Shown: piece by piece, positions 5,562 through 33,489 of the stretch | Numbering within the stretch: position 1 is the stretch's first letter | Layout: each line of letters begins with the position of its first letter | DNA from: Gemmatimonadota bacterium | GTDB taxonomy: Bacteria; Gemmatimonadota; Gemmatimonadetes; Palauibacterales; Palauibacteraceae | Length of the DNA stretch: 36,435 bases | Reading direction: 5' to 3' | NCBI GenBank assembly: GCA_039588275.1 | Contig: JBDHAC010000033.1 | Location: 1-36,435 of the forward strand | Translations under genes and position numbers: made by a program | Notes under the pieces: generated by a model | Databases searched by the model: none | Told to the model about the DNA's origin: nothing | Seen by the model: only the letters and a program-made list of their open reading frames with translations

Positions 5562-5695
5562 AAGTCGATACGGACAAAGTCGGCCACCTGGCGCATGTAG
5601 GGATTTCCCCGACATGACAACGCGAAGTGGCCTACATAGGCTAAACGGTGACCGCAATCCGAGTGCACCCCGCGGCCCCAATAGCAGGAGGTTCC

Positions 5696-6733
5696 ATGGA
5701 CCGGAGAGCGTTCGTAAAGAGCACGGCCGGCCTGAGCGGTGCCGCGCTGACGGCGCCCTTCGTCGACGCCGCCGGGATGTTGGAACACATGGGCTCGAGT
5801 GCGCGTGAGCCCTCTGCGGTCAAGGGCTCTGCAGCGTCACGTGTGGCCTTCGTCAAGACCACGGACCGGGCAGCGGGGGTCCGCCGCGCGCTGGAGCTCC
5901 TCGACTTCGATTCGCTGCGGGGGACGGACCTGTTCCTCAAACCGAACTTCAATAGCCATCACGACACTCCCGGCTCGACCCACAACGAAACCCTCGCCAC
6001 CCTGGTTCAGGCCCTTCGATCCCGAGGTGCCGCCCGCATCACGGTCGGCGATCGCTCCGGCATGGGTGACACGCGCGGAGTCATGGAGCGCAAGGAGGTC
6101 TTCCGGATGGCGGAGGACCTGAGCTTCGAGACGATCGTATTCGATGAGCTGGACGAGACGGGCTGGGAGTTGAAGCGCCAGGATGACAGCCATTGGGACG
6201 CCGGCTTCGCGCTACCCCGCCGGGTCCTCGAGGCGGACGGCGTGGTTCAGACCTGCTGCCTCAAGACGCATCAGTTCGGGGGGCACTTCACGATGGCGCT
6301 CAAGAACTCGGTTGGCCTGGTGGCAAAGCAGCTTCCCGGAGAAGCACACGACTACATGCGGGAGCTGCACCGATCGCCGGATCAGCGGCGGATGATCGCC
6401 GAGATCAACGCGGCGTACCGGCCCGACATGATCGTCTTGGATGGGGTGGAGGCGTTCGTGGACGGAGGGCCTCACAGCGGCACCAGAGTGACGGCGGAGG
6501 TGGTGCTCGCGGGCACCGACCCCGTCGCGATCGATGCCGTGGGGGTCGCGCTTCTGCGTCACTACGGTACGACCCCCGAGGTGAGCCGGGGACGGATCTT
6601 CGAGCAGGAGCAGATCGCCCGCGCCGTCGAGTTGGGTTTGGGTGTGAGCGCTCCGGACCAGATCGAGTTGGTGACCGAGGACTCGGCGAGCCGTGCTTAC
6701 GCGCAGCGGATCAGGGAGGTGCTCCTGGCCTAG
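5696..6733 (+). CDS. DUF362 domain protein with Tat signal peptide
   Basis: AGGAGG RBS before MDRRAFVKS (twin-arginine); LKPN, CLKTH...FTMALKNSVG and DPVAID motifs. Confidence 0.88.
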   Translation: MDRRAFVKSTAGLSGAALTAPFVDAAGMLEHMGSSAREPSAVKGSAASRVAFVKTTDRAAGVRRALELLDFDSLRGTDLFLKPNFNSHHDTPGSTHNETLATLVQALRSRGAARITVGDRSGMGDTRGVMERKEVFRMAEDLSFETIVFDELDETGWELKRQDDSHWDAGFALPRRVLEADGVVQTCCLKTHQFGGHFTMALKNSVGLVAKQLPGEAHDYMRELHRSPDQRRMIAEINAAYRPDMIVLDGVEAFVDGGPHSGTRVTAEVVLAGTDPVAIDAVGVALLRHYGTTPEVSRGRIFEQEQIARAVELGLGVSAPDQIELVTEDSASRAYAQRIREVLLA

Positions 6734-11501: not shown

Positions 11502-12776
11502 TCAACGGAGGCGCGGGCAGCCCGATGCGTCGAAATGTTGATCGATGCCCCGCATCACTTCGGCCGCGCTTCGATAGCTCGAAGGGATAGCCGACTCGCC
11601 TTCATCGCGAACCGCGGCGACCTTGCCCGACAGCGCGATGAAGGCATCATCCGCCGTTCGATAGGCTTCGGACATGCGATCGCAACCCACGCCATTGGTC
11701 TGATACGCCTCTGCGAGATCGTAGTACGCGTAGACCTCGGTTCGAAAAGCATCGTATTCAGACCTGAAGGTGGCCTCGCCGAAGACCTGCGGTAGTTCAT
11801 GGACGGCGAACGGTGCGGAGAACAATGTCGTGTCCGGCGCGGACGATAGCGCGGCTGGGCGTTCCCGGAGAAGGAGCCCCGCACCACCAACGATCAAGAC
11901 CGAAGCGGCCAGGGCGAGGGCCGATCGGCGACCTCGTCTCACCGAGTCCGTGGAGCGGCCGGACGGCGCCATCACCAGCGGTGTGACGAGTTGGCTCCCT
12001 GTATGCCGATTGGAAGGTGGAGGAGAAGCCGGGACGACCGGTGCCGTTGTCTCGTAGTTCGAGAATCCGACACAGGTGAAAGGAGGGCGAGCGCTCGGGT
12101 CGGTCGAGCCGTCGAGCCGCTCGAAGAAGGGCCTGTGTCTATCCGGCTGCAGCCGTTCGCCCTCGTTGCACCAGAATACGGCGCCCTTGGGTGCGGTCAG
12201 GTCGGAGACCATGAGGAGACTGAACTGCCAGGGTTCGCTGAACAGGCGCTTGTGGACCTCTATCTCCGCCTCCGTCAGCGTGCACTCTGACCCGGGGCGC
12301 GTTCGGTACCACCCGACGGGAACGCCGCCCGTCCAACACGGCTCCTCGAACAGCGAGAGCAGGGCATCCTCGAGCGCGTCGGCCGAATCGCCGTGCGCGC
12401 CCGGCTCCACGGCCGAATCGAGCCCCTTTTCGAAGGCGAGCCCGGCACCGATCGAGGCCACCACGTCGACCCACAAGCGCTGGGTGGACGGGCATTCCAA
12501 CACGTGCCCGAGCAATAAACCGGCTGTGCGTCCCTCCAGATCTCGGACCATCTCGTGTCGAAGCGTGACGAACACGCGCTGCTCTATAACGATATCGGGT
12601 TGGTGCTGGGCTCGTCCGTTGGACGCTTCATCCCCACGCGGCTTCCAGCCGATCGAGCCCTCGATGGGGAACAGCTCACGTTCGTATGGGAGGAAATAGA
12701 ATGGATTGGAGCTGTCGAAGGTTTCGCCGCCGCCACCCGGCGCTGCGCGATCGTCGGTCCCGGTCATCGTCCCCAC
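11502..12776 (-). CDS. Membrane-anchored JAB/MPN-like protein, paralog A (JAMM degenerate)
   Basis: AGLLLG...VGWYRTRP...FSEPWQ...PFFE...FSNY; single TM (ALALAASVLIVGGAGLLL); C-terminal GCDRM...SGCPR. Confidence 0.8.
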   Translation of the reverse strand: MGTMTGTDDRAAPGGGGETFDSSNPFYFLPYERELFPIEGSIGWKPRGDEASNGRAQHQPDIVIEQRVFVTLRHEMVRDLEGRTAGLLLGHVLECPSTQRLWVDVVASIGAGLAFEKGLDSAVEPGAHGDSADALEDALLSLFEEPCWTGGVPVGWYRTRPGSECTLTEAEIEVHKRLFSEPWQFSLLMVSDLTAPKGAVFWCNEGERLQPDRHRPFFERLDGSTDPSARPPFTCVGFSNYETTAPVVPASPPPSNRHTGSQLVTPLVMAPSGRSTDSVRRGRRSALALAASVLIVGGAGLLLRERPAALSSAPDTTLFSAPFAVHELPQVFGEATFRSEYDAFRTEVYAYYDLAEAYQTNGVGCDRMSEAYRTADDAFIALSGKVAAVRDEGESAIPSSYRSAAEVMRGIDQHFDASGCPRLR

Positions 12777-22550: not shown

Positions 22551-22868
22551 TCATGCCGTTTCGTCGGTGCCGGGCTCGGGGAGTGCAGCACGCTCGCGGT
22601 GGGAAAGGAGGTTCTCGACGAACTCCTGGCGCTCACCGATGAGATCGAGTTGTCTCTCGAGTGATTCGAACGCGCTCCTCAGCTCGGCGATCTCACCGCC
22701 GATCTTCGCGACCTGGCCTTTCTCGAGGCGGGCTTCGCGACGTTCCCGGACCGATTCCTCCATGAGCCCGCCCAGCCGCTTGAGAATCGGGGTCGTGATG
22801 ATGAAGCCTCCGATGATGAGGACCATGACGACGGTGAAGATCATCGCCCCGACTGTGTACGGATCCAT
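22551..22868 (-). CDS. Small membrane protein with C-terminal coiled coil
   Basis: GAGG RBS; one TM (MIFTVVMVLIIGGFII); heptads ending ERQEFVENLL. Confidence 0.75.
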   Translation of the reverse strand: MDPYTVGAMIFTVVMVLIIGGFIITTPILKRLGGLMEESVRERREARLEKGQVAKIGGEIAELRSAFESLERQLDLIGERQEFVENLLSHRERAALPEPGTDETA

Positions 22869-22996
22869 ATGCCGACCTCTACCCAAGCTCGCGTGGCTCA
22901 CCACCGGCACATTGGCGGGCAAACTTCAAGAAGCTACGGGAATCGCGGTGTGACGAACCAGAGTTGCCCGGCGAAGGCCAGGCTGGAGGAGGGGAT

Positions 22997-23030
22997 GAAG
23001 AAAGAGCCCCGGAGCCTGTCCGGGGCTCTT
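22997..23030 (-). terminator. Intrinsic terminator after the MPN paralog cluster
   Basis: Perfect 12-bp stem AAGAGCCCCGGA / TCCGGGGCTCTT with a 5-nt loop and a T-rich tail on the minus strand, about 70 nt after the stop at 23104. Confidence 0.75.
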
Positions 23031-23103
23031 CTCGCGCGGAGGCTGAAGCTCGGGAAGGGCGCGGTGACCGTCGCCAGGCCCACCCTGACCTTAACGCGGC
23101 CGA

Positions 23104-25332
23104 CTACCCACCTCGCGGCGGCGGACACTCCGACAGCTCGTAGTGAACGTCGATGACGGTTGCCTGTCGCCCCGCGCTGCGATATGCCTGAATTCCCGGT
23201 CCGGCGAACTGATCCCGTGCCGCCTCGAAGCGGCTGCCTAGTCGCCGGTAGGCATCCCTGACCGCCCGGTAGGACAGGTTCAGCGCGTTGCACCCCGCGA
23301 GCAGATCGTCGAACGCGATCCGCAGCGAGTCGTAGCGCGTCACTTCCTTGCGGAAGATCGTGAACGCGTCTTCGAAGGCCGCCACCGTGGGGTCGTCCAG
23401 CTGGAGTCCCTCGAGCCTCAGCAACACCGAGGTGTCGACAGCGGCAGCCACCGCCGGCGCTGCATCTGCTGAAGGGGACTCGGCGGCGGGAGTATTCTCT
23501 CGCTGTGAATCCGCGCTCGCGGCCGCGTCTTGCTCCGGTGTGGCGGTCGCCGGGGTCGCCTGCGGAGGAGCCTCTTCGAGCGCCGGATCGGCCGGTCCTG
23601 TCGCGCCCAAGCCCTCACGGTCGCTCTGCAGCGCCTCCTCCGTGGCCGAGGCTCCTCCGGTAAAGGAGCTGTCCCCCTCGGCCGTGATCGCGTCGGCCGT
23701 GATCGCTGCCGCGGGCATCTCTGGACCGACCCACAGGAACTCGGCCTCGGCTGTCTCGAGGGCGCCCGACCCGCGCGGGAACAGAGGCCCTTGACCGAGC
23801 GTCACGCCGGCCATCGATGCGTCGCGATCCTGGGTGGTCGGCAGCTCCCCCGTCGCGACGGGCAGCGGCGCATCTTCACGCGCGGACGCATCGCGTGCAC
23901 CACCCAGTCGCTCCAGGACGAGCCAGCCGCTACCCAGGAGGGCGACGAGGCCGGTCGCCGCCAGGGCGACTGTCCGCACCGGGATACGCGACTTGCGTCG
24001 AGATCCGCCGACCAACGTCTCGATGCTGTCGAAGGATGCCTGAGCGTCGGGCGGCTCGAGTCCGATGTACTCTGAGCTGACCGGCGGAAGCTGCACCGAA
24101 TCCGGTGGTACCCGCTGGCTTCGCACCGGCTCCGGAGTCGCGGGTACTGAACCGATCGGCTCCTTGCGGACGGACTCGGTCGAAGTCGCTCGGGATGCGG
24201 GAGCTGCAGCAGTGGGTGCGGCGTCGCGGGGCTCGGCGCTGATGGGGTCGGGGGGCGCGGTCGTCGCTTCCTCGTCCTCGAGCTCGACCGGGCTTGCGTC
24301 GGGAGTCGGTAGCTGAGCACCTAGACCGGTGGCAGCCGATGGCCCCAGCGTTCTCCCGACAGCGCTGAGCGACCGTCTGATCTGTACCTCTGACCAGCTC
24401 TCCTCGGCCTGGTCGGTCTCGTCGGTGGCGTCGGCGCTAACTGGAGCCGCCTCAGCGGTGGGTGTCGGGGCCGCGTGGACGGTCGGCCCCGGAGCCGGGT
24501 GGACGACCGGCACCGGATCTACCTCGGCGCCCGGCGCTTCACGAGGTGGAGATGACGTCCGCTCGAGCGGCTCGATGGGGGCGGGTGCTCGGTCGGCTCC
24601 GGGCTCGCTGGGGACCGGGCCGTCGGAATCAGTTTCGCGGGCTTCCTGGGTGGCTTCCGGGTCGGACGGGATAACCGAAGAAACGCCCGCCTTACCGGCC
24701 AGCGCGACCGAGAGGTCGGTTTGGTAGTTGGACCAACCGGCGAAGGTCCGCTTCCAACCTGGTGCAAACTCCGAGCTCGGATCGATCAGCTCGAAGAACG
24801 CGGCATACCCGCTCCTGCTCAACGCCCCGGTTTCGGTGCGCTGGAAGACTCCCCCGACCGGGTGTTCCGGGGTGCCCGCGAGGATCACCGCGCACTGCCA
24901 GGGCTCGCCAAAGCGAGTCTCCTGGAGTCGTGCCTCCTGCTCGGAGAGATAGACACCTGTGAGGGCATGCGTGCGGTACCAGCCGACGACCCTGTCGGCC
25001 TGCGCGGGGTCGATGACCTCCGCCAAGGCCGCCCACAGAATCTCCGCAGACGACTCCTCGGGGAGCAGTCGTCTCGCGCGAACGGCGACTTCCACGAGTA
25101 CCCACTTGCGCCCACAAGTCGGATCCTCGCGGACCCGACCGAGAAGGACACCCCCGACGGGCGCGTTTGGAGACGAAGACGCGTGCTCGCGCGCCTGCTT
25201 CAGAGCCGGTTGGCTGAACACGAGGTCCGCCCCAGCATCCGGAGCCACGCCGGTCGCCAGCTTTCGTGGCGTCCACAGGATGCTCTGGACAAAGGGCGGG
25301 GCTTCTGGCTGCCCGCTCTGACCGCCCGTCAT
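23104..25332 (-). CDS. Membrane-anchored JAB/MPN-like protein, paralog B (JAMM degenerate); alternative start 25485
   Basis: ILWTP, VGGVLLG, VGWYRTH...LSEQE, FGEPWQ, GGVFQR, FFE, WSNY; Pro/Ala/Glu linker; TM; GCNAL...SECPPP. Confidence 0.82.
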   Translation of the reverse strand: MTGGQSGQPEAPPFVQSILWTPRKLATGVAPDAGADLVFSQPALKQAREHASSSPNAPVGGVLLGRVREDPTCGRKWVLVEVAVRARRLLPEESSAEILWAALAEVIDPAQADRVVGWYRTHALTGVYLSEQEARLQETRFGEPWQCAVILAGTPEHPVGGVFQRTETGALSRSGYAAFFELIDPSSEFAPGWKRTFAGWSNYQTDLSVALAGKAGVSSVIPSDPEATQEARETDSDGPVPSEPGADRAPAPIEPLERTSSPPREAPGAEVDPVPVVHPAPGPTVHAAPTPTAEAAPVSADATDETDQAEESWSEVQIRRSLSAVGRTLGPSAATGLGAQLPTPDASPVELEDEEATTAPPDPISAEPRDAAPTAAAPASRATSTESVRKEPIGSVPATPEPVRSQRVPPDSVQLPPVSSEYIGLEPPDAQASFDSIETLVGGSRRKSRIPVRTVALAATGLVALLGSGWLVLERLGGARDASAREDAPLPVATGELPTTQDRDASMAGVTLGQGPLFPRGSGALETAEAEFLWVGPEMPAAAITADAITAEGDSSFTGGASATEEALQSDREGLGATGPADPALEEAPPQATPATATPEQDAAASADSQRENTPAAESPSADAAPAVAAAVDTSVLLRLEGLQLDDPTVAAFEDAFTIFRKEVTRYDSLRIAFDDLLAGCNALNLSYRAVRDAYRRLGSRFEAARDQFAGPGIQAYRSAGRQATVIDVHYELSECPPPRGG

Positions 25333-25532
25333 CTGTCCTTGATTCCCAGTCTTAGACACCGTGGCCTCGGCAAAAAATTCCGCTACCTCGCTACTTCGTA
25401 ACGGGGCGTACGATCCGGTCCGGCCCGTGGCAGCGCCCTGGTCGCACCGAATCGTCTTGTAGGACGCGCTTTCCTCCGATCTCATGCCTCGTCCAGGCGC
25501 GTGAAATCGCCCGTCATCCGAGGCTTGGGAGG

Positions 25533-25548
25533 TGCAAGAACGTGGCCG
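25533..25548 (-). promoter_or_regulatory. Possible sigma-54 (-24/-12) promoter
   Basis: Minus strand reads CGGCCACGTTCTTGCA, with GG-N10-GC spacing and TTGCA, in the gap upstream of paralog B. Confidence 0.35.
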
Positions 25549-25605
25549 CGTTCGGCAGCCGGAAAGGGGGGCGTTGCGGTGCTCTTGTCGGCGCTCCGAC
25601 CGGTG

Positions 25606-26910
25606 TTACGGCCGGTCGCAGCCGGAGCCTGAGAAGTGGCTGCTCACGTCGACCACCCGCAGTGCAGCCGCCTCGTATTCCGCACGTCCGTCACCCGGGG
25701 TGGCCAGGCTGAGGGCGGCGTAGGCCATGGCGGCCGCGCGGAAGTCCCGTTCGGCCCGCGACAGGCCCGAAGCGAGTGCGTCACACGAAGCCTCCGGGGG
25801 ACCCTCGAGCCTCGCGTACGCGTCCAGGGCGCTGCCAAGACTCGTCATGGCGCTGAGGAACGCGGCCTCCGGTGACGGTGGCTCGGAACGGTCCAATCCC
25901 GAGGCGTCCGCCTCGGTCGGCGCGGAGAACTCGAGCGCCGGCCCCAGACTCGGGCCAAGCCGCTCCCACCCGTACCAGCCGGCCAGGAACAGGGCGGCTG
26001 CAGCGACGACTGTGACGATGACTCCTCGCCCCCGAGATCGTCGAGAGCCCGTCGCGGGCGCATCGAGGCCGTCGTCCCCAGTCATCCAGACCAGGTCCTC
26101 CCGCGAGTCGGGCGTCTCGCCCCGCGATCGTCTGGGCCGGGTCGCCGGACCGCCCAGCCGCGGTGGAAGGACCCCCGCGCTTCCCGATCGAGCCTGACCG
26201 GACGCCAGATCCCGAAGTGAAGTGGGATCGATCAGATGAACGCGGTTGTCGGTGGTGTAGTTCTGCCAATGAATCATCGTCTGGCGGCTGCCGTCCGATC
26301 TCACCGTCCGCGGCAGCTCATAGAACGGTGCATACGCGGTGCGGGAGAACACCCCGCCTGGTCCTCGCTGGAACACCCCTCCGGCCGGATCCGAGCGCGC
26401 CACGAGGATGAGCGCGAACTGCCAGGGTTTCGAGAATTCTCGCTCGTGAAAGCGGCTTTCGGATTCCGTAAGGGTGACTCCGACGCGCGCATGACTGTGG
26501 TACCAACCGACGCGCACCAGAGTGCTGTCGTCCGCGTCGAACGCAGCCGGACCAAGCGCGGCCGTCAACGCGCGCGCATCACACGCTTCGGAGAGGGACA
26601 CGGTAGAGCGCCATACGGAATCAGCGCGCACCCACCGCCGGCCCGAGGTCGGGCAGCGGAATAGTCTGCCCACCAGGACCCCGCCGACATCCGAGTCCCC
26701 CCGCAGCACCTGTTCGAGGATCGTGGCGAGGGCAGACTGCGTGAGCACGATGTCCCACGCGGCAGCGATAGTCGTCTCCGTCACCCACAGCTTCCATGGG
26801 GTCCACAGAATGGCTTCCTCCCCGGGGTGTGGTCGCGGCCGAAGCGGTGGCACAACCGCCTCGCGTCTTTCCGCCTGCGGCTTCGAGGCCGATCGCGGCC
26901 GGTCGCTCAT
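25606..26910 (-). CDS. Membrane-anchored JAB/MPN-like protein, paralog C (HxH kept, other JAMM residues altered)
   Basis: ILWTP, DVGGVLVG, VGWYHSH...LTESE, FSKPWQ, GGVFQR, PFYE, WQNY; TM; SCDAL...SGCDRP; TGATG coupling to the upstream gene with AGGAGG RBS. Confidence 0.85.
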   Translation of the reverse strand: MSDRPRSASKPQAERREAVVPPLRPRPHPGEEAILWTPWKLWVTETTIAAAWDIVLTQSALATILEQVLRGDSDVGGVLVGRLFRCPTSGRRWVRADSVWRSTVSLSEACDARALTAALGPAAFDADDSTLVRVGWYHSHARVGVTLTESESRFHEREFSKPWQFALILVARSDPAGGVFQRGPGGVFSRTAYAPFYELPRTVRSDGSRQTMIHWQNYTTDNRVHLIDPTSLRDLASGQARSGSAGVLPPRLGGPATRPRRSRGETPDSREDLVWMTGDDGLDAPATGSRRSRGRGVIVTVVAAAALFLAGWYGWERLGPSLGPALEFSAPTEADASGLDRSEPPSPEAAFLSAMTSLGSALDAYARLEGPPEASCDALASGLSRAERDFRAAAMAYAALSLATPGDGRAEYEAAALRVVDVSSHFSGSGCDRP

Positions 26911-29174
26911 CAGGCGGACCCTCCTGCCTGGCCCTGAGTCCGTTCACACCCGGACCCCTCGAACTGGTTACGCACCTCACGCATGTCGTCGGCGAACGGC
27001 CGGAAGTCGACCGAGCCCGCCGGAGCCAGCGCCACGTGCTGGGACAGCTCACCGAACGCCGCTGACAGGACCTCGTACCCCGTCGCGAGTCCGGTACAGT
27101 CGATCCGCCCGAGCTGGAAATCCGCCTCCCGCTCTTTGTACGCGGCGAGCGCTGCGGTGAACTCTCCGGAGAGGCGGATGAACTCCGGTGCCTGCGCGGG
27201 AGGGCGGACCGTCGGCGGAGCGACGGTCGCGGGTGTCTGAAATGCAGGCTGCGGAGGCTGTTCCCGCCCGAGCAGGAACCAGGCTGACACCGCCGCGATG
27301 ACCATGGCGGCGGCGATCAGCGCCCGGTCCCGCTTGCGACGAAGCGACGGAAACCAGCCGAGACCGTCTTCGGTTGGCATGACCACCGGGATCTCGGCCA
27401 GGCGATCCTCGTCCGGATCCTCGCTGACACCCACGAACGCGGACCGCGGCTGGCGCCCGGTTGGGGGCGCTGCAGTCTTTGCCTCGGACGCTGGCATCAT
27501 CACCTGAACCGGCTCACTGGGGTCGCCTGGCGGCGGCGCATCCTCATCGCCCCCCGCGTCCGGCGTCTCGACTTCGTCTGCCGCGATCTCCGCCGATTGC
27601 TCCGCGGCTTCGGAGTCTGTCCGCTCGGTAGGCGCGAGTCCCTCGGCCAGCGTTTGCTCCACCAGACCCAGGAGCCACTCGAGCGAGCCAGCGGCCGAGT
27701 CCGCCTCCGGTGGCTCCGCGCCGAGGGCTCCGTCCCGCGTGCCGACCTCGGGCAGGATGCCGGTTCCCTCGAGCGTGGCGTCCATCTCCGCCGCCTCCGT
27801 CGGCATGAGCTCCCGATATAAGGGGAGCTCCAGAACAGATGCCTCGTTCGCCTCCGGCTCGAACGGTGCGGGCCCCCAGATGGCTTCCAGGAACTCCGCG
27901 ACCTGGCCATCGTCGGCGTCCAACGAAGGACGCACCGGCCGGCTCTCGGCGGGTGCTTCATCGGGCTCGAGGTCCAGCGCACTAACGGCTTCGTGAAACT
28001 CGCCGCTGAGATCGGCCGCTGTCGCCGCCTGCTCGTCGCCGGGCGGTTTGGCCTTCTTGGTCTTTGCCGCCGACTTGGCTTTCGAGGTGCGTTTCTTCTT
28101 CCGTGCAGGCTTGACCTTGGCGGTCGGCTTCGCCTTGGGCGCGGACTTCTTCGATGCGGGTGTGCTGCGCTTCTTCCAGCGCTTGGCCGGCGGCCCACTG
28201 CGGGGCTCCGACTTGGTCTCCGCTTCCCCGTCCGCGTCAGTCTCGGGCCGGGCCTCGTCACTCTCATCGTCCTGTACATCGGGCGTCGGGCGGGGGCGCC
28301 GGGAAGGGACAGGCCACGTCGCGGGAACGACCTCCACCCGCTCTTCGGCCCGGTAGTTGGTCCAATCCACCACCGATGGCTTCTTGCCGTCGATCAGCTT
28401 CGCGTCAAGATCGATCAGCTCGTAGAAGCCACTGATGCCCTTCCGGTACAGGCTGGCTCGCCCGGTACGCTGGATGAAGCCCCCCACCACGCCTCGCTGG
28501 CCTGGTACGATCAGGAGCGCGCAGTGCCACGCCTCTGGGAAAAACTCCTCCTGCAGTTGAAGATCCGACTGCGAGAGGTGGAGCCCGAGAACGCCATGCT
28601 GGTGATACCACCCGATGATTTGACCGCGCCTTCGTCGGGCCTCACGCGAAGCGGATGCCCACGAACGACGAAAGGAGTCCACGTCGCCGCTGTGGGGGGC
28701 GTCGTGTGTCTCCCGGCGGGCGGCATCGATGACTACGTAGGGCGCTCGCGTCCAGGGACAGTACACGACGTGACCCAGCAAGAACCCATACGGCTCGCTG
28801 TTCGCCGAACCGATGAGATGCGCCCGAACCTCTCGCAAGACCGATTGTGCGACGAACAGCTCGTGGGGCTGGGATCGGTCCCGGACATGCGCCCGCCGCC
28901 CCTTGGAAGGGACCCAAGCGATCGCCCGCGAATACGGCTTGGGTCGCTTGCGGAAAGGAAGGCTCGGCGGCCACTCGTCGGGTTGATGCCGCTCGCCGGT
29001 ATCGCCCGGGTCCGGCACCGGCAGCAACACGCCGCGCGAGCGGCGCTGCCACCAGGCGACCACTGCAGAGCCAGTCTTTTCGAAGCGCGATTCCACCAGA
29101 TAGACCTCCAGCAGACCGCCGAAGTACTTCATCAGCCGGCTGCGAAGCGCACCGATGCCCGAATATCGAGTCAT
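26910..29174 (-). CDS. Membrane-anchored JAB/MPN protein, paralog D (intact JAMM); start uncertain (29132/29174/29312)
   Basis: EPYGFLLG and IGWYHQHGVLGLHLSQSD give E...HxH-x7-S-x2-D; Lys-rich then acidic linker; TM; DCTGL...SGCER. Confidence 0.85.
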   Translation of the reverse strand: MTRYSGIGALRSRLMKYFGGLLEVYLVESRFEKTGSAVVAWWQRRSRGVLLPVPDPGDTGERHQPDEWPPSLPFRKRPKPYSRAIAWVPSKGRRAHVRDRSQPHELFVAQSVLREVRAHLIGSANSEPYGFLLGHVVYCPWTRAPYVVIDAARRETHDAPHSGDVDSFRRSWASASREARRRRGQIIGWYHQHGVLGLHLSQSDLQLQEEFFPEAWHCALLIVPGQRGVVGGFIQRTGRASLYRKGISGFYELIDLDAKLIDGKKPSVVDWTNYRAEERVEVVPATWPVPSRRPRPTPDVQDDESDEARPETDADGEAETKSEPRSGPPAKRWKKRSTPASKKSAPKAKPTAKVKPARKKKRTSKAKSAAKTKKAKPPGDEQAATAADLSGEFHEAVSALDLEPDEAPAESRPVRPSLDADDGQVAEFLEAIWGPAPFEPEANEASVLELPLYRELMPTEAAEMDATLEGTGILPEVGTRDGALGAEPPEADSAAGSLEWLLGLVEQTLAEGLAPTERTDSEAAEQSAEIAADEVETPDAGGDEDAPPPGDPSEPVQVMMPASEAKTAAPPTGRQPRSAFVGVSEDPDEDRLAEIPVVMPTEDGLGWFPSLRRKRDRALIAAAMVIAAVSAWFLLGREQPPQPAFQTPATVAPPTVRPPAQAPEFIRLSGEFTAALAAYKEREADFQLGRIDCTGLATGYEVLSAAFGELSQHVALAPAGSVDFRPFADDMREVRNQFEGSGCERTQGQAGGSA

Positions 29175-29475
29175 GCTCGGGGATCTCGAACTTTCCGAGC
29201 CCTTCAATATACCTCCGAGACGGTCGAAACGCCGCGTTGGTGGCAAGGCCTGGCCCGAATCCGGCAACTCGGCACGCACCGTGCCCCACTCGCCCCTCGC
29301 ATCGTGACTCATCGGCGGGTCGCGTCGCCTGCGTAGGGCGTCACGGCGTTTTCGTCCTATGTACGTAGTCGTGCCCGCGCGAGGCGATCTAAACGGTGGT
29401 GCGGGCAAAGTGCGGCAAGCCCTGACCTTTACCGGGCATCCGGGTCTGGGGCGGCATGCAGGAGGGAGAGATCGC

Positions 29476-31581
29476 TTGAAGGGCGATCCGAGGGACGACG
29501 GCGTCTCGCAGGCGGCAGGCCTTCTTGGCCGGGCCGTCCAACAGCACCGCATCTATCCAGCCGCCAGCCCCCTGTGCTTGGAGTCCATCAACAACTGCCT
29601 GTCGGCGTTGGAGCAACTCTCGGGCGAGGCCCTCGAGCTTCGCGTTGCGCCGCGGCAGATCTTTCATGGCGCCGATCCCCTCCCCGGGACGGCGGCGCTC
29701 AGCGAGCTGGCCGACCGGCTCTTCCGCGCCGACGTGGAGGAGTTGCGCGTCAACCGGGAGACCCCGGCCAAAGAGCTCGGGCGGTTCTGCCGTCAGCTCG
29801 CCACCTGGGACCGCCGGAACGAACGGGACGGCTCGTTCGCCGAGATCCTCGGAGAGCGGGGGGTCAACTCCATCACCGCGCGGGCGGCGGACAAGCTGGA
29901 GATCCTCGAGGTCGACGTGATCTCCAACGAGAGATTGGCCCAGTTGAGCGAGGAGCGACGGGCGCGAGCACCCGAAGACCAGCCCCGTGAGGGCGACGGA
30001 AGTCACCAGGCATGGATCCAGGTCGATACCGATTGCGATGTGGAATCCATCGATCTCGTCGATCTGGCCTTTCTCGTCGAGAACCAGGCAGACCTCGCCC
30101 AGGTGCTCTACGACATCGCGGAAGGAGGTGCTCAACGCGCATCGGGCGCCGAAGCGCTCCGCGAGAACATCGCCGAGCTCATCGAGCTGTACAGCTCGCT
30201 CAGCCCGCGTGTTGCCGAGAACCGATTTGACGACCTCGCGCGGACGCTCATGACGCTGGATCCGGAGACGCGGGAGGCCCTGACGCAGGATGTGCTCATG
30301 CCGGACCTCCTCGAGACCGGCAAGGCCGCCCGCCTGCTGCAGTTACTCCCGGACGAGGAGATGGTCGACGCCATCCGTACGCTGGGGGAGCTCGAGGTCG
30401 GGGCGCCGGGCCTGGTGAAGCTCGCGTTCGATCGGCTCGCGCTCCCGGACGAGCGGCGCGTGGCCCTCGCGAGAACGGTCGACGAATCGCTCCACCCGGG
30501 TCCCGAGGAGGGAGAGTCCGACTCGACCCACGTAAGACTCTCGGCGGATGGATCAGAGAGTCAAGATCTTCAGGAGTACACCGCTCACGAGCTTTCCGTG
30601 GACGAAGAGACGGCTGCGGAGCTGGACCGCATCAAGACCGCGGTCGAGGCGGTCCAGCCGGCCGAGGGGGGGTCAGAGTGGCTGCGCGGCTGCGCCAATC
30701 TCGTTCGTCACGTTCGTAACCCCGACCATGTCGAGGAGATGCTCGAGCTTGCCGCGGAGGCACTGGTCTCGCTGATTCGCTCGGATGCCGGGAAGGCCGC
30801 GGGGGCTGTCGACGACCTCTGTTCCGCGGCCGATGCCGTGCGCGACCACAGGCCGGAGGTCGCCGAGGCCGTGGATGGGCTCATGCTGTCCATCTGCTCT
30901 CCGTCTTTCCTGCGGGCCCAAGCGCAGGACTGGCTCGGCCAGGAAGACCCGGATTCTGCCGGGCGGGCCCTTCTGCTGGCCCTGGGGACCGCTTCGATAG
31001 AAGCCTTCGTGCGCTTCCTCGATGAAGAGCCGTCGCGGGCCGTACGGCGACGAGTGATGGACTTCATGTGCGAGAACGGACGCGCGCTCGCCGCCGTGTC
31101 GATCCCTTATCTGAGCGACGAGCGCTGGACCGTGGTGCGCAACATGGTCCGGATCATCGGGTTCGCCGGCCCCGGACATGAGGCACAGCTGGCTCCCCTC
31201 GTCGGGCACCCGGAAGACCGCGTTGCCAGGGAGGCGCTTCTCGCACTGGCACGTATAGGGTCACCGGAAGCCGCCAAGCTGGTGGTCGGAAGGCTCGAGG
31301 AAGAGAACCCATCCCGACGAGCGATGGCGGAGGAGTCGATCCGCACCTTCCCGGTGGAGGAAGGTCGCCGCCAGGCGCGCCGACTGCTCGCGGACCAGAG
31401 ACTCCTGCGTCGCTCCCCCGAGCTTGCCCGTAGCCTCGTCGAGCGATTCGTCGCGACCGATCGAACGGGCTGGGAGGATGTTCTCTCTCCGATCCTGTCG
31501 CTGCGCTTCCGGTTCTGGAATCGCAGGCAGATGGCGCTGGGCCGGGCCGCAGCGGCGGCGCTCAAGGGGAGTCGACGGTGA
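29476..31581 (+). CDS. HEAT-repeat domain protein
   Basis: TTG start after GGAGGGAGAG; C-terminal HEAT repeats (DERWTVVRNMVRIIG, HPEDRVAREALLALARIG); GTGA overlap with the next gene. Confidence 0.85.
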   Translation: MKGDPRDDGVSQAAGLLGRAVQQHRIYPAASPLCLESINNCLSALEQLSGEALELRVAPRQIFHGADPLPGTAALSELADRLFRADVEELRVNRETPAKELGRFCRQLATWDRRNERDGSFAEILGERGVNSITARAADKLEILEVDVISNERLAQLSEERRARAPEDQPREGDGSHQAWIQVDTDCDVESIDLVDLAFLVENQADLAQVLYDIAEGGAQRASGAEALRENIAELIELYSSLSPRVAENRFDDLARTLMTLDPETREALTQDVLMPDLLETGKAARLLQLLPDEEMVDAIRTLGELEVGAPGLVKLAFDRLALPDERRVALARTVDESLHPGPEEGESDSTHVRLSADGSESQDLQEYTAHELSVDEETAAELDRIKTAVEAVQPAEGGSEWLRGCANLVRHVRNPDHVEEMLELAAEALVSLIRSDAGKAAGAVDDLCSAADAVRDHRPEVAEAVDGLMLSICSPSFLRAQAQDWLGQEDPDSAGRALLLALGTASIEAFVRFLDEEPSRAVRRRVMDFMCENGRALAAVSIPYLSDERWTVVRNMVRIIGFAGPGHEAQLAPLVGHPEDRVAREALLALARIGSPEAAKLVVGRLEEENPSRRAMAEESIRTFPVEEGRRQARRLLADQRLLRRSPELARSLVERFVATDRTGWEDVLSPILSLRFRFWNRRQMALGRAAAAALKGSRR

Positions 31582-32981
31582 GTGGGCTGGCCCGAGACTC
31601 GAGAACGTTGACGCCGCTCGTCATCCTGCGGGCGTTGAGCGGTCTTCGCAGGAGTCTCGCGCTCTACCCCTCCGGCCACACGGTGATCGAACAGGCGATC
31701 GATGAGTTGGAGCGCGTGCTCGAGCAGGTCTTCGTGGAGCACGACAGGGTCCGCATCGAGCTCGTCGACAAGACCGCGCACCTCGAGGGATACCCGTTCC
31801 GGGTCGAGAGCCACTCGAACGCCGATGCCCTGGAAGAGTTACAGCGACTCGAGATCGAGTGTCTGCAGATCGAGCGTGGCGTGGAAAGGGACGAGCTCGC
31901 GGAGATGGCGGGCCTCCTCCATAGATTGGGGGATCGTGTCCCAGAGGATTCGATGCGCGGCCTCCTGCTCGCCGAGGGGGTGAAACGGGTGACCATGACT
32001 CGACTCGTCCCGGTCGAGACCCGTTTCCAGTCGTTCGAGTGGCCCAGTGAGCCCGAGAGTATCCTGGAGCCGGGGTATGCCAGAGCGCTCGATGACGCGC
32101 ACGACTCCATCGGTGCGATCTTCGAGGGTGGGACGCCGGACGCACAGTCGCTGCACCAGCTGCTGGCGTGGATTAGCGAACAGGTCGCAGACAGCACCTC
32201 CGCCCTGAGCCAGATCCTCTCCGTGAAGAGATACGAGAACCACACCTACTGCCACTCGGTGAACGTGGCGACGCTCGCGATGCTCCTCGGTCGCCGGATC
32301 GGACTCGAGGAAGCCGAGCTGATGTCGCTCTCGGAGGCGGCTCTCCTCCACGACGTAGGTAAGCGCCAGATTCCCTCGGACATCCTCACGAAACCGGGCC
32401 CGCTCAACCGGCGTGAGTGGCGCATCGTGCAACGTCACCCCGTCATAGGCGCGAGCATCCTCACGCGCGCGAGCGGTTTCGAGCCCCTCACGCCGACGGT
32501 AGCCCTCGAGCACCATCGAGAGTACGGAGGTGGCGGGTACCCGGATCTGGAGGAACAGAGACCGCATCTGTTGAGCCAGATCGTCGCGGTCGTGGATACG
32601 TACGAGGCACTCACCGGAGCCCGGCCCTACCGCGAGCCGTTGGTTCCGGAGGAAGCATGTCTCATCCTCGCCCGGATGGCCGGGGAGAAGCTGAATCCGG
32701 CATTGGTGAAGGCGTTCGTGAGCCTGGTCACGTTCTTCCCGCTCGGCTCGGTGGTGCGAACCTCTCTCGGGGAGATCGGGGTGGTGATCGACACGTCGGA
32801 AGACGACCCGCTCCACCCCGTGATTCGATTGGGTGGTGGCGGTCTGGACTCGCCGGGGACGAGGATCGATACCGCCGACCGGGATGCCGGGGGAGAGTAC
32901 GTGCGACACATCGTCGAGACGCTGCCCCGGTCCGTCGCCGATCCGGATCCGGAACCGGAGCCCCTCGCCGCCTCCGCCTGA
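31578..32981 (+). CDS. HD-GYP domain protein (cyclic dinucleotide phosphodiesterase family)
   Basis: TYCHSVNV, LLHDVGK, HP..G, EHHREYGGGGYP, VDTYEALT..RPYR. Confidence 0.92.
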   Translation: MSGLARDSRTLTPLVILRALSGLRRSLALYPSGHTVIEQAIDELERVLEQVFVEHDRVRIELVDKTAHLEGYPFRVESHSNADALEELQRLEIECLQIERGVERDELAEMAGLLHRLGDRVPEDSMRGLLLAEGVKRVTMTRLVPVETRFQSFEWPSEPESILEPGYARALDDAHDSIGAIFEGGTPDAQSLHQLLAWISEQVADSTSALSQILSVKRYENHTYCHSVNVATLAMLLGRRIGLEEAELMSLSEAALLHDVGKRQIPSDILTKPGPLNRREWRIVQRHPVIGASILTRASGFEPLTPTVALEHHREYGGGGYPDLEEQRPHLLSQIVAVVDTYEALTGARPYREPLVPEEACLILARMAGEKLNPALVKAFVSLVTFFPLGSVVRTSLGEIGVVIDTSEDDPLHPVIRLGGGGLDSPGTRIDTADRDAGGEYVRHIVETLPRSVADPDPEPEPLAASA

Positions 32982-33091: not shown

Positions 33092-33165
33092 GGCCCCGTA
33101 GCTCAGGTGGATAGAGCGCGGGATTCCTAATCCCGAGGCCGCAGGTTCGAGTCCTGCCGGGGTCA
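33092..33165 (+). tRNA. tRNA-Arg(CCT), CCA not encoded
   Basis: Acceptor GGCCCCG/CGGGGTC, D-arm TAGCTCAGGTGGATAGAGC, anticodon arm CGGGA-TTCCTAA-TCCCG, T-arm GCAGG-TTCGAGT-CCTGC. Confidence 0.96.
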
Positions 33166-33489
33166 CTCGCAACCACGCGGGTTTTCGGCTGTTACAACGG
33201 CACCGAAAGCCCGGATGGGAACCGTTTTGGGAACGATTCCGCCCCCCGGGTCCCAGACGAGAGGACGCACCCCCACAGCAGTCCGACGCCCGGGCTTGAG
33301 GACGGGATCGAGACTTACGTCCCCGAGTTCGGTTTGCAGACGGTCTGGTACGACGATCCCTAGACGCACGCTGCCTCTGCTTGCCACTCGCGGCTGATCC
33401 TCGGCTCCTTGGGGATCGCCTCGGACTTGGGTGGAAATGTGTGGGATATGGCCACCCCACTGCTCCCCTCGTCCTCCGGTCGCGGTGTA

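Follow-up and report, generated by a model that had tools for sequence, protein, structure and literature searches.

Does a bacterial locus that places one intact JAMM metalloprotease gene beside degenerate copies of itself encode an enzyme and pseudo-enzyme pair of the kind formed by eukaryotic MPN+ and MPN- proteins? The question is raised by a stretch of 36,435 nucleotides (hereafter the window), positions 1 to 36,435 of contig JBDHAC010000033.1 from the Gemmatimonadota bacterium assembly GCA_039588275.1. A sequence-only reading of it had proposed that gene D encodes the catalytic subunit of a membrane complex and that its paralogues A, B and C encode inactive partners. The proteins belong to the JAMM/MPN family and have an undescribed architecture. 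Genomes, loci and proteins are labelled G0xx, Lxxx and P0xxx, respectively, and G000 is the window's own genome (86% complete).

The minus strand of the window contains the consecutive open reading frames D (26910-29552), C (25606-26910) and B (23104-25485), and a distal paralogue, A (11502-12776). Judging from the N-termini of orthologues, D likely starts at a GTG near 29096 and B at a GTG at 25359. The features of the locus are:

26910..29096, minus strand: gene D; short N-terminal segment, MPN domain with a complete JAMM motif, long acidic/basic disordered linker, transmembrane (TM) helix, C-terminal three-helix domain
28317..28946, minus strand: MPN domain of D with its beta-rich extension; Glu 28796, His 28604, His 28598, Ser 28574, Asp 28565
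27267..27323, minus strand: single TM helix of D, from hydropathy; preceded by a basic run; probable N-in topology
26940..27191, minus strand: C-terminal three-helix bundle of D; two invariant cysteines; predicted to be periplasmic; no Pfam or PDB family
25606..26910, minus strand: gene C; degenerate MPN domain (D/H/H/T/E) at 26221-26835, TM helix from 26025, same C-terminal domain
25370..25402, minus strand: conserved non-coding motif directly 5' of the likely start of B; putative promoter or regulator site
23104..25359 (open frame to 25485), minus strand: gene B; degenerate MPN domain (P/R/H/S/E) at 24688-25305, TM helix from 23970, same C-terminal domain
23001..23031, minus strand: GC-rich hairpin and short T run 3' of B, found by eye; failed a terminator scan
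11502..12776, minus strand: gene A; degenerate MPN domain (R/R/R/T/E) at 12018-12677, TM helix from 11924, same C-terminal domain

The translation of D reads E-P-Y-G (Glu codon at 28796) and then H-Q-H-x7-S-Q-S-D (28604 to 28563), which is the canonical ExnHxHx7Sx2D motif. The corresponding residues are D-V-G-G and H-S-H-x7-T-E-S-E in C (Asp, His, His, Thr, Glu), P-V-G-G and R-T-H-x7-S-E-Q-E in B (Pro, Arg, His, Ser, Glu), and R-T-A-G and R-T-R-x7-T-E-A-E in A (Arg, Arg, Arg, Thr, Glu). The earlier claim of a complete JAMM motif in D and degenerate ones in A, B and C is thus borne out residue for residue. Pfam JAB matches all four proteins weakly (E 0.002-0.02, under the cut-off), the four match one another across approximately 150-200 residues (tblastn E 1e-5 to 1e-34), and the pattern GW[YF]HxHx7[ST]xxD has a single occurrence among the 6.09 million six-frame residues of the genome. 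Together, these results indicate that the JAMM-like pattern is not a chance occurrence. G000 also carries a fifth degenerate copy, E, which lacks a TM helix and lies on another contig (G000:C19:916-1740), together with an MPN-less protein that has the C-terminal domain of the window proteins (G000:C55:16482-17108).

To establish how far this arrangement is conserved, we compared related loci. One of the two pattern words used in the locus search demanded the His pair; the Glu, Ser and Asp residues and the neighbouring genes were unselected. The named relatives of the family are Gemmatimonadota. Query P0001 matched 23 of 41 related genomes, one of which (G017) falls outside the family, and the family MPN profile matched 37 of 251 genomes of the phylum (E 1e-15). 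The 13 top loci of the relatives search make up the D lineage, giving 14 genomes with G000, all of them drafts. A complete D followed by degenerate copies was found at all 13 loci, and the five JAMM residues of D are invariant throughout the lineage, so the active/inactive pattern that the sequence-only reading asked to see in orthologous loci is there. Whole-genome searches identified exactly one complete family copy in each of the 14 genomes. A B-lineage copy is present at every one of the 13 loci, immediately after D in 11, and C lies between D and B solely in the window's genus (2/13 loci). The stop codon of D overlaps the ATG of C (TGATG, 26912-26908), which had been taken as translational coupling within a stoichiometric complex; as a conserved link this does not survive the comparison, and it is B, rather than C, that is D's constant neighbour. 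B has its own upstream motif (25370-25402), which is conserved in at least seven orthologous loci and is not a sigma-70 consensus. The enzyme-plus-pseudoenzyme gene pair is therefore real and conserved.

In the family tree all D copies formed one clade, and B, C, A and E formed one wholly degenerate clade with complete sister rows (SH-aLRT 92 and 93, FastTree support 0.93 and 0.92). The complete sisters suggest that the D and B lineages both began as enzymes. All of the D-B loci derive from one clade, which makes their pairing approximately one event.

We estimated approximate ratios of nonsynonymous to synonymous substitution (dN/dS), which were 0.04-0.16 for D (12 pairs), 0.10-0.41 for B (12 pairs), 0.16-0.19 for C (3 pairs), 0.19-0.21 for A (3 pairs) and 0.33-0.56 for copy E (3 pairs). 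B, C and A have intact reading frames and keep the TM helix and both tail cysteines. Neutral evolution of the degenerate copies, which would have undone the proposal of the sequence-only reading, is not what we observe for these three, which are under purifying selection. They are probably MPN- pseudo-enzymes, having lost catalytic residues from a conserved domain. C may have residual metal binding, since both of its His residues are kept and the changes are only Glu/Asp exchanges. Copy E stops directly after the MPN domain, at the same position in G001, and the copy in G002 retains the TM helix and tail; E is either a soluble dead MPN protein or a decaying copy.

Motif loss extends across the wider family. 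Among 237 non-redundant family domains, whose unnamed representatives were assigned to the family by homology, 42 have the complete motif, 111 retain His-His-Asp but not the canonical Glu and 84 are without the zinc triad. In 29 of the 111 Glu-less domains there is a Glu one residue earlier that might serve instead. Arg replaces the first His in 44 of the 61 domains that have lost it. Within the window's order, 8 of 22 genomes have a complete copy; in two other families none of 31 genomes does, and 19 of these have a single copy. Three further matches read later comprised two degenerate copies and one outgroup-type JAB protein without a tail. The subfamily of L085, L094, L098 and L108 keeps the Glu (or Asp) and the first His and has lost the second His, a mirror of the common Glu-less form. 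The metagenome locus L279 has two adjoining fully degenerate MPN genes, and the Chloroflexota locus L143 has two adjoining complete JAB genes.

The four window proteins have a layout that recurs across the family: an MPN domain with a beta-rich extension, then a linker of low complexity, a basic run that leads into one hydrophobic helix, and a tail of 85 residues. Linker length ranges from 35 to more than 1000 residues across paralogues. At L041, L042, L046 and L060 dead copies have linkers of approximately 1000 residues that are rich in alanine, glutamate and arginine and TolA-like in composition. The AlphaFold2 model of the MPN domain of D has a predicted local distance difference test (pLDDT) score of 90.7 and a predicted template modelling score of 0.89, and its best Foldseek matches are CSN5, Rpn11 and the BRCC36 complex (E ~1e-7). 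A profile of 53 family domains has Rpn11 as its best solved match (E 5e-11), followed by archaeal Rpn11, BRCC36 and CSN5. As modelled, D has the MPN fold of a JAMM/MPN+ metalloprotease. The model contains three helices; after residue 142 there are strands only, with no helix 4, and the low-complexity linker comes next. We infer an N-in topology with a periplasmic tail that contains a disulfide.

The tail is modelled as a three-helix bundle (pLDDT 96.6) whose two cysteines are invariant in 95/95 aligned rows, and it has no match to any library family (Pfam, PDB). Clustering of neighbouring genes revealed a secreted protein encoded 3' of one family lineage in 10 genomes, and an SH3 gene with a probable outer-membrane gene upstream of family genes in 12 genomes. 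The secreted partner has a signal peptide, a 65-residue helical two-cysteine N-domain without a library match, Big_1 immunoglobulin (Ig) domains and often tetratricopeptide repeats (TPRs); its C-terminal part looks barrel-like. We searched the same 251 genomes with a 70-residue partner profile built from neighbours of tail-domain genes. The MPN domain was detected in 37, the tail in 34 and the partner N-domain in 29, of which 28 also have the tail. Most partner matches (33/41) sit 36-305 nucleotides downstream of a tail match. Directly after each of eleven zinc-dead copies comes a partner gene of its own, and tail-only genes without an MPN domain, one of which retains an MPN remnant, also precede a partner gene. 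This suggests that the tail-partner link is the core of the system and the MPN head an apparent accessory.

Some loci depart from the simple arrangement of tail gene and partner. At L325 (G259:C72) three tail-domain genes, two of them without an MPN domain, lie in a row before one partner gene. At L349 (G000:C55:16482-19085) the MPN-less TM and tail protein of the window's genome is encoded 3' of two genes, one for an SH3 protein and the other, divergent, for a probable outer-membrane protein. Because family genes of 12 related genomes stand in this SH3 context as well, L349 may be an old locus that has lost its MPN head.

The nearest outgroup is a soluble, complete JAB protein of Chloroflexota, and genes for E1, ubiquitin-E2, ubiquitin, FHA-membrane and vWA proteins (labels from reading the sequences) flank 55-60 of 64 outgroup loci. 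Fusions to YukD, E2 or TIR domains occur in related proteins. Seven proteins of the outgroup operon had no match at the Gemmatimonadota family loci except for a repressor-domain match at an unrelated locus. A ubiquitin-E2 query against the 14 D-lineage draft genomes gave one weak match, with a strong positive control, and no YukD was found in G000. The Ins-1 strand, which pairs with the tail of ubiquitin, is present in the aligned outgroup rows and missing from the D and B lineages. Passages of PMC4140821 support this role of Ins-1. With no E1, E2 or ubiquitin gene linked to family loci, one weak E2 match and no Ins-1 strand, a ubiquitin-like substrate for D, as the earlier reading had envisaged, appears unlikely. 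Anti-phage JAB systems (CBASS Cap3, Bil and similar) were considered and rejected: none of the four window domains matched the PADLOC defence models (E 0.01), which the outgroup JAB does match, and there are no defence genes among the conserved neighbours of family loci.

The explanation that we favour, with a probability of roughly 45%, is that these proteins are envelope-spanning adaptors derived from a JAB of the bacterial ubiquitin system, in which D cuts, and B holds or presents, a client other than ubiquitin. A JAB of an E1-E2-ubiquitin operon would have lost its operon and become such an adaptor. All four proteins are likely inner-membrane anchors, with the predicted periplasmic tail docking on the secreted Ig/TPR partner or on sister tails, the linker giving reach and the MPN head recruiting a cytoplasmic client. 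The tail-partner link may be the old core function, and the head an accessory recruitment module whose fate would have differed by lineage, from retained activity through loss of the Glu or of zinc ligands (mostly first His to Arg) to deletion of the whole head. Among the window proteins D, which alone has the full motif, is a probable zinc protease; B, C and A are probably conserved binding heads without catalytic activity. In the D lineage, D and B would likely act in one pathway, B handling the same client that D would cut, and contact between them need not be an MPN dimer of the Rpn11-Rpn8 type.

Several points weigh against this explanation. The partner gene adjoins no D-lineage cluster and was found in just 6 of the 14 D-lineage genomes (drafts, searched with a 70-residue profile), which suggests that the very lineage in question may have lost or altered the envelope link. 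In G000 the partner copies lie at C4:31162-33465 and C19:79790-80893, apart from the D cluster. The partner profile was built from neighbours of tail genes, so it favours matches in the genomes that carry them. Tail-partner binding, the periplasmic location, the disulfide and the barrel of the partner are themselves predictions from sequence. Finally, two observations fit a true MPN heterodimer equally well: the single complete copy in each of the 14 D-lineage genomes and the presence of complete-plus-dead domains in 4 of 11 natural tandem fusions. Of the two partner copies in G000, the one at C19:79790-80893 is short: it contains a single TPR-like part and lacks a long C-terminal region.

Such a heterodimer is what the sequence-only reading proposed: a catalytic D bound MPN-to-MPN by B (perhaps also C and A) as an activating or scaffolding pseudo-enzyme, of independent bacterial origin. 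We regard it as possible but doubtful. D adjoins a degenerate B-lineage copy at all 13 loci and in the window, no D-lineage genome has a second complete copy, B is under purifying selection, and zinc-ligand loss has recurred in several clades beside a copy that retains its ligands. Nature has also fused MPN domains in tandem: among the best 150 representatives and 62 further homologues we counted 11 proteins with two MPN domains before the TM helix (one named as Acidobacteria), of which 4 are complete-plus-dead, 6 have both domains complete and 1 has both without the canonical Glu. However, the D-B loci amount to about one event, and the four dead tandem domains cluster together in the tree. 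Eukaryotic and archaeal MPN dimers are built from helices 1, 2 and 4, according to passages of PMC4140821 and PMC6043591. In the model of D no helix follows the core, and helices 1 and 2 are the least conserved parts of B (mean pair identity 0.33 and 0.22 versus 0.45 overall; 14 sequences), so an interface of the Rpn11-Rpn8 type finds no support, although this conservation test could miss a co-varying interface. The former active site and extension of B are better kept (0.57 and 0.52), and helices 1 and 2 of D have identities of 0.65 and 0.57 versus 0.57 overall (14 D-B pairs). That dead copies generally require an active one finds no support either, on mixed evidence: active and dead copies co-occur in 14/14 D-lineage genomes, but in G009 (92% complete) the degenerate B-lineage copy occurs by itself, the two other families have no complete copy in 31 genomes, and dead copies there come with their own partner gene. 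The B lineage also has complete sister members, and in approximately 50 membrane-anchored relatives a single MPN domain has the complete motif without any fused partner. A version in which D and B dimerise through a non-eukaryotic, beta-rich interface, and signals from the periplasmic tails switch the cutting of a non-ubiquitin substrate, strikes us as equally doubtful. If it were true, His-to-Arg inactivation and active-plus-dead fusions would be independent reruns of the step to Rpn8, CSN6 and Abraxas.

It is less likely that the copies are independent products of tandem duplication, each with its own periplasmic ligand and cytoplasmic client and without cooperation between D and B. The two other families keep each paralogue at a separate locus beside a separate partner gene, the conserved motif upstream of B belongs to that gene alone, A and E now lie away from the cluster, and linker lengths vary from paralogue to paralogue. 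Against this, the adjacency of D and B outlasts a change of all flanking genes between subclades in which synonymous sites are near saturation, and degeneration within the D-lineage clade is limited to the copy beside D. More improbable still is a desampylase-like role for D as a membrane-tethered isopeptidase or maturase of ThiS/MoaD-type small proteins, with the dead copies binding conjugates. G000 contains three ThiS/MoaD-family genes and one MoeB/ThiF, D is its sole Prok-JAB match, and characterised JAB peptidases work on ubiquitin-like tails, as parts of PMC3239186 describe. Yet a ThiS/MoaD-type gene lies near none of the family loci examined, both of the fully read ThiS/MoaD proteins already terminate in Gly-Gly, D lacks the Ins-1 strand that the ubiquitin-operon outgroup keeps, relatives use a separate stand-alone JAB, and the G000 assembly is 86% complete. 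Functionless decay of the degenerate copies is hardly credible as a general account. The truncation of copy E before the TM helix in two genomes and its dN/dS of 0.33-0.56 agree with decay, which remains a candidate for E, but it is refuted for B, C and A by their dN/dS of 0.10-0.41, intact frames, TM helices and paired cysteines.

Other genes surround the cluster. A small gene for a TM and coiled-coil protein lies 3' of B (22551-22922) and also occurs near the cluster in G001, G002, L125 and L133. On the other side, a divergent pair of HEAT-repeat and HD-GYP-type genes (29359-32981) is followed by a tRNA-Arg gene (33092-33166); the pair is syntenic with the cluster in G001, G002 and G004, and with the lone copy in G009. 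A has probably been separated from the cluster. A DUF362 gene lies beyond A in the window (5648-6733) and directly after the third cluster gene in G015 (L036:6485-7591), which suggests that A was once part of the cluster.

This one bacterial family shows every stage from a complete motif through loss of the Glu, loss of the zinc site and deletion of the head to active-plus-dead fusion. Passages of PMC6043591 treat inactive MPN partners as eukaryotic and as not known from archaea. With the conserved gene pair, the origin of JAMM pseudo-enzymes can be tested on two small soluble domains, and the pair points to a JAMM protease whose action is likely independent of ubiquitin. Approximately one in seven of the sampled Gemmatimonadota genomes would have an undescribed envelope link made by the two helical domains, which are both cysteine-paired and unclassified.

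A literature search, which did not cover subscription papers and supplements, found no paper on this family. FecR-type anti-sigma factors have a cytoplasmic head, one TM helix and a periplasmic domain that touches the N-domain of an outer protein. They resemble the window proteins in layout only: the family has no sequence match to FecR, TonB or LysM families, and there is no sigma factor gene among the conserved neighbours of its loci. LysM-associated bacterial JAMM proteins are mentioned in the Fig. 1 legend of PMC6043591. The Caldiarchaeum protein CsRpn11 is likewise a prokaryotic Rpn11-like JAMM (E 6e-10 to the family profile), but passages of PMC6043591 describe it as soluble, monomeric in solution, processing archaeal ubiquitin and having no inactive partner. 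The Acidobacteria-type membrane-anchored Mov34/MPN proteins, single or tandem (P0003-P0008, P0050, P0053, P0077, P0152 and P0153-P0204, few with a taxon name), share the order of MPN domain, linker and TM helix, and their tandems include complete-plus-dead ones; they differ in having other C-terminal parts without a tail match, in keeping Ins-1 and in some TIR, YukD or E2 fusions.

The JAB peptidases of bacterial E1-E2-ubiquitin operons, a class described in parts of PMC1779556, PMC6043591 and PMC7159879, are the nearest outgroup and have the whole 200-residue domain and its extension in common with the family. They are soluble, approximately 225 amino acids long and nearly all complete, whereas the Gemmatimonadota family lacks such operon neighbours and is mostly Glu-less. 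With the eukaryotic pairs Rpn11-Rpn8, CSN5-CSN6 and BRCC36-Abraxas/Abro1, the window proteins share the MPN fold and the presence of one complete JAMM beside constrained degenerate paralogues. Unlike those pairs, they are single-pass membrane proteins with a predicted periplasmic tail, D has no helix 4 in its model, and there is no PCI or coiled-coil scaffold. Their dead copies arose from complete JAMM proteins within the family, and the profile of these copies fits Rpn11 better than Rpn8 or Abraxas.

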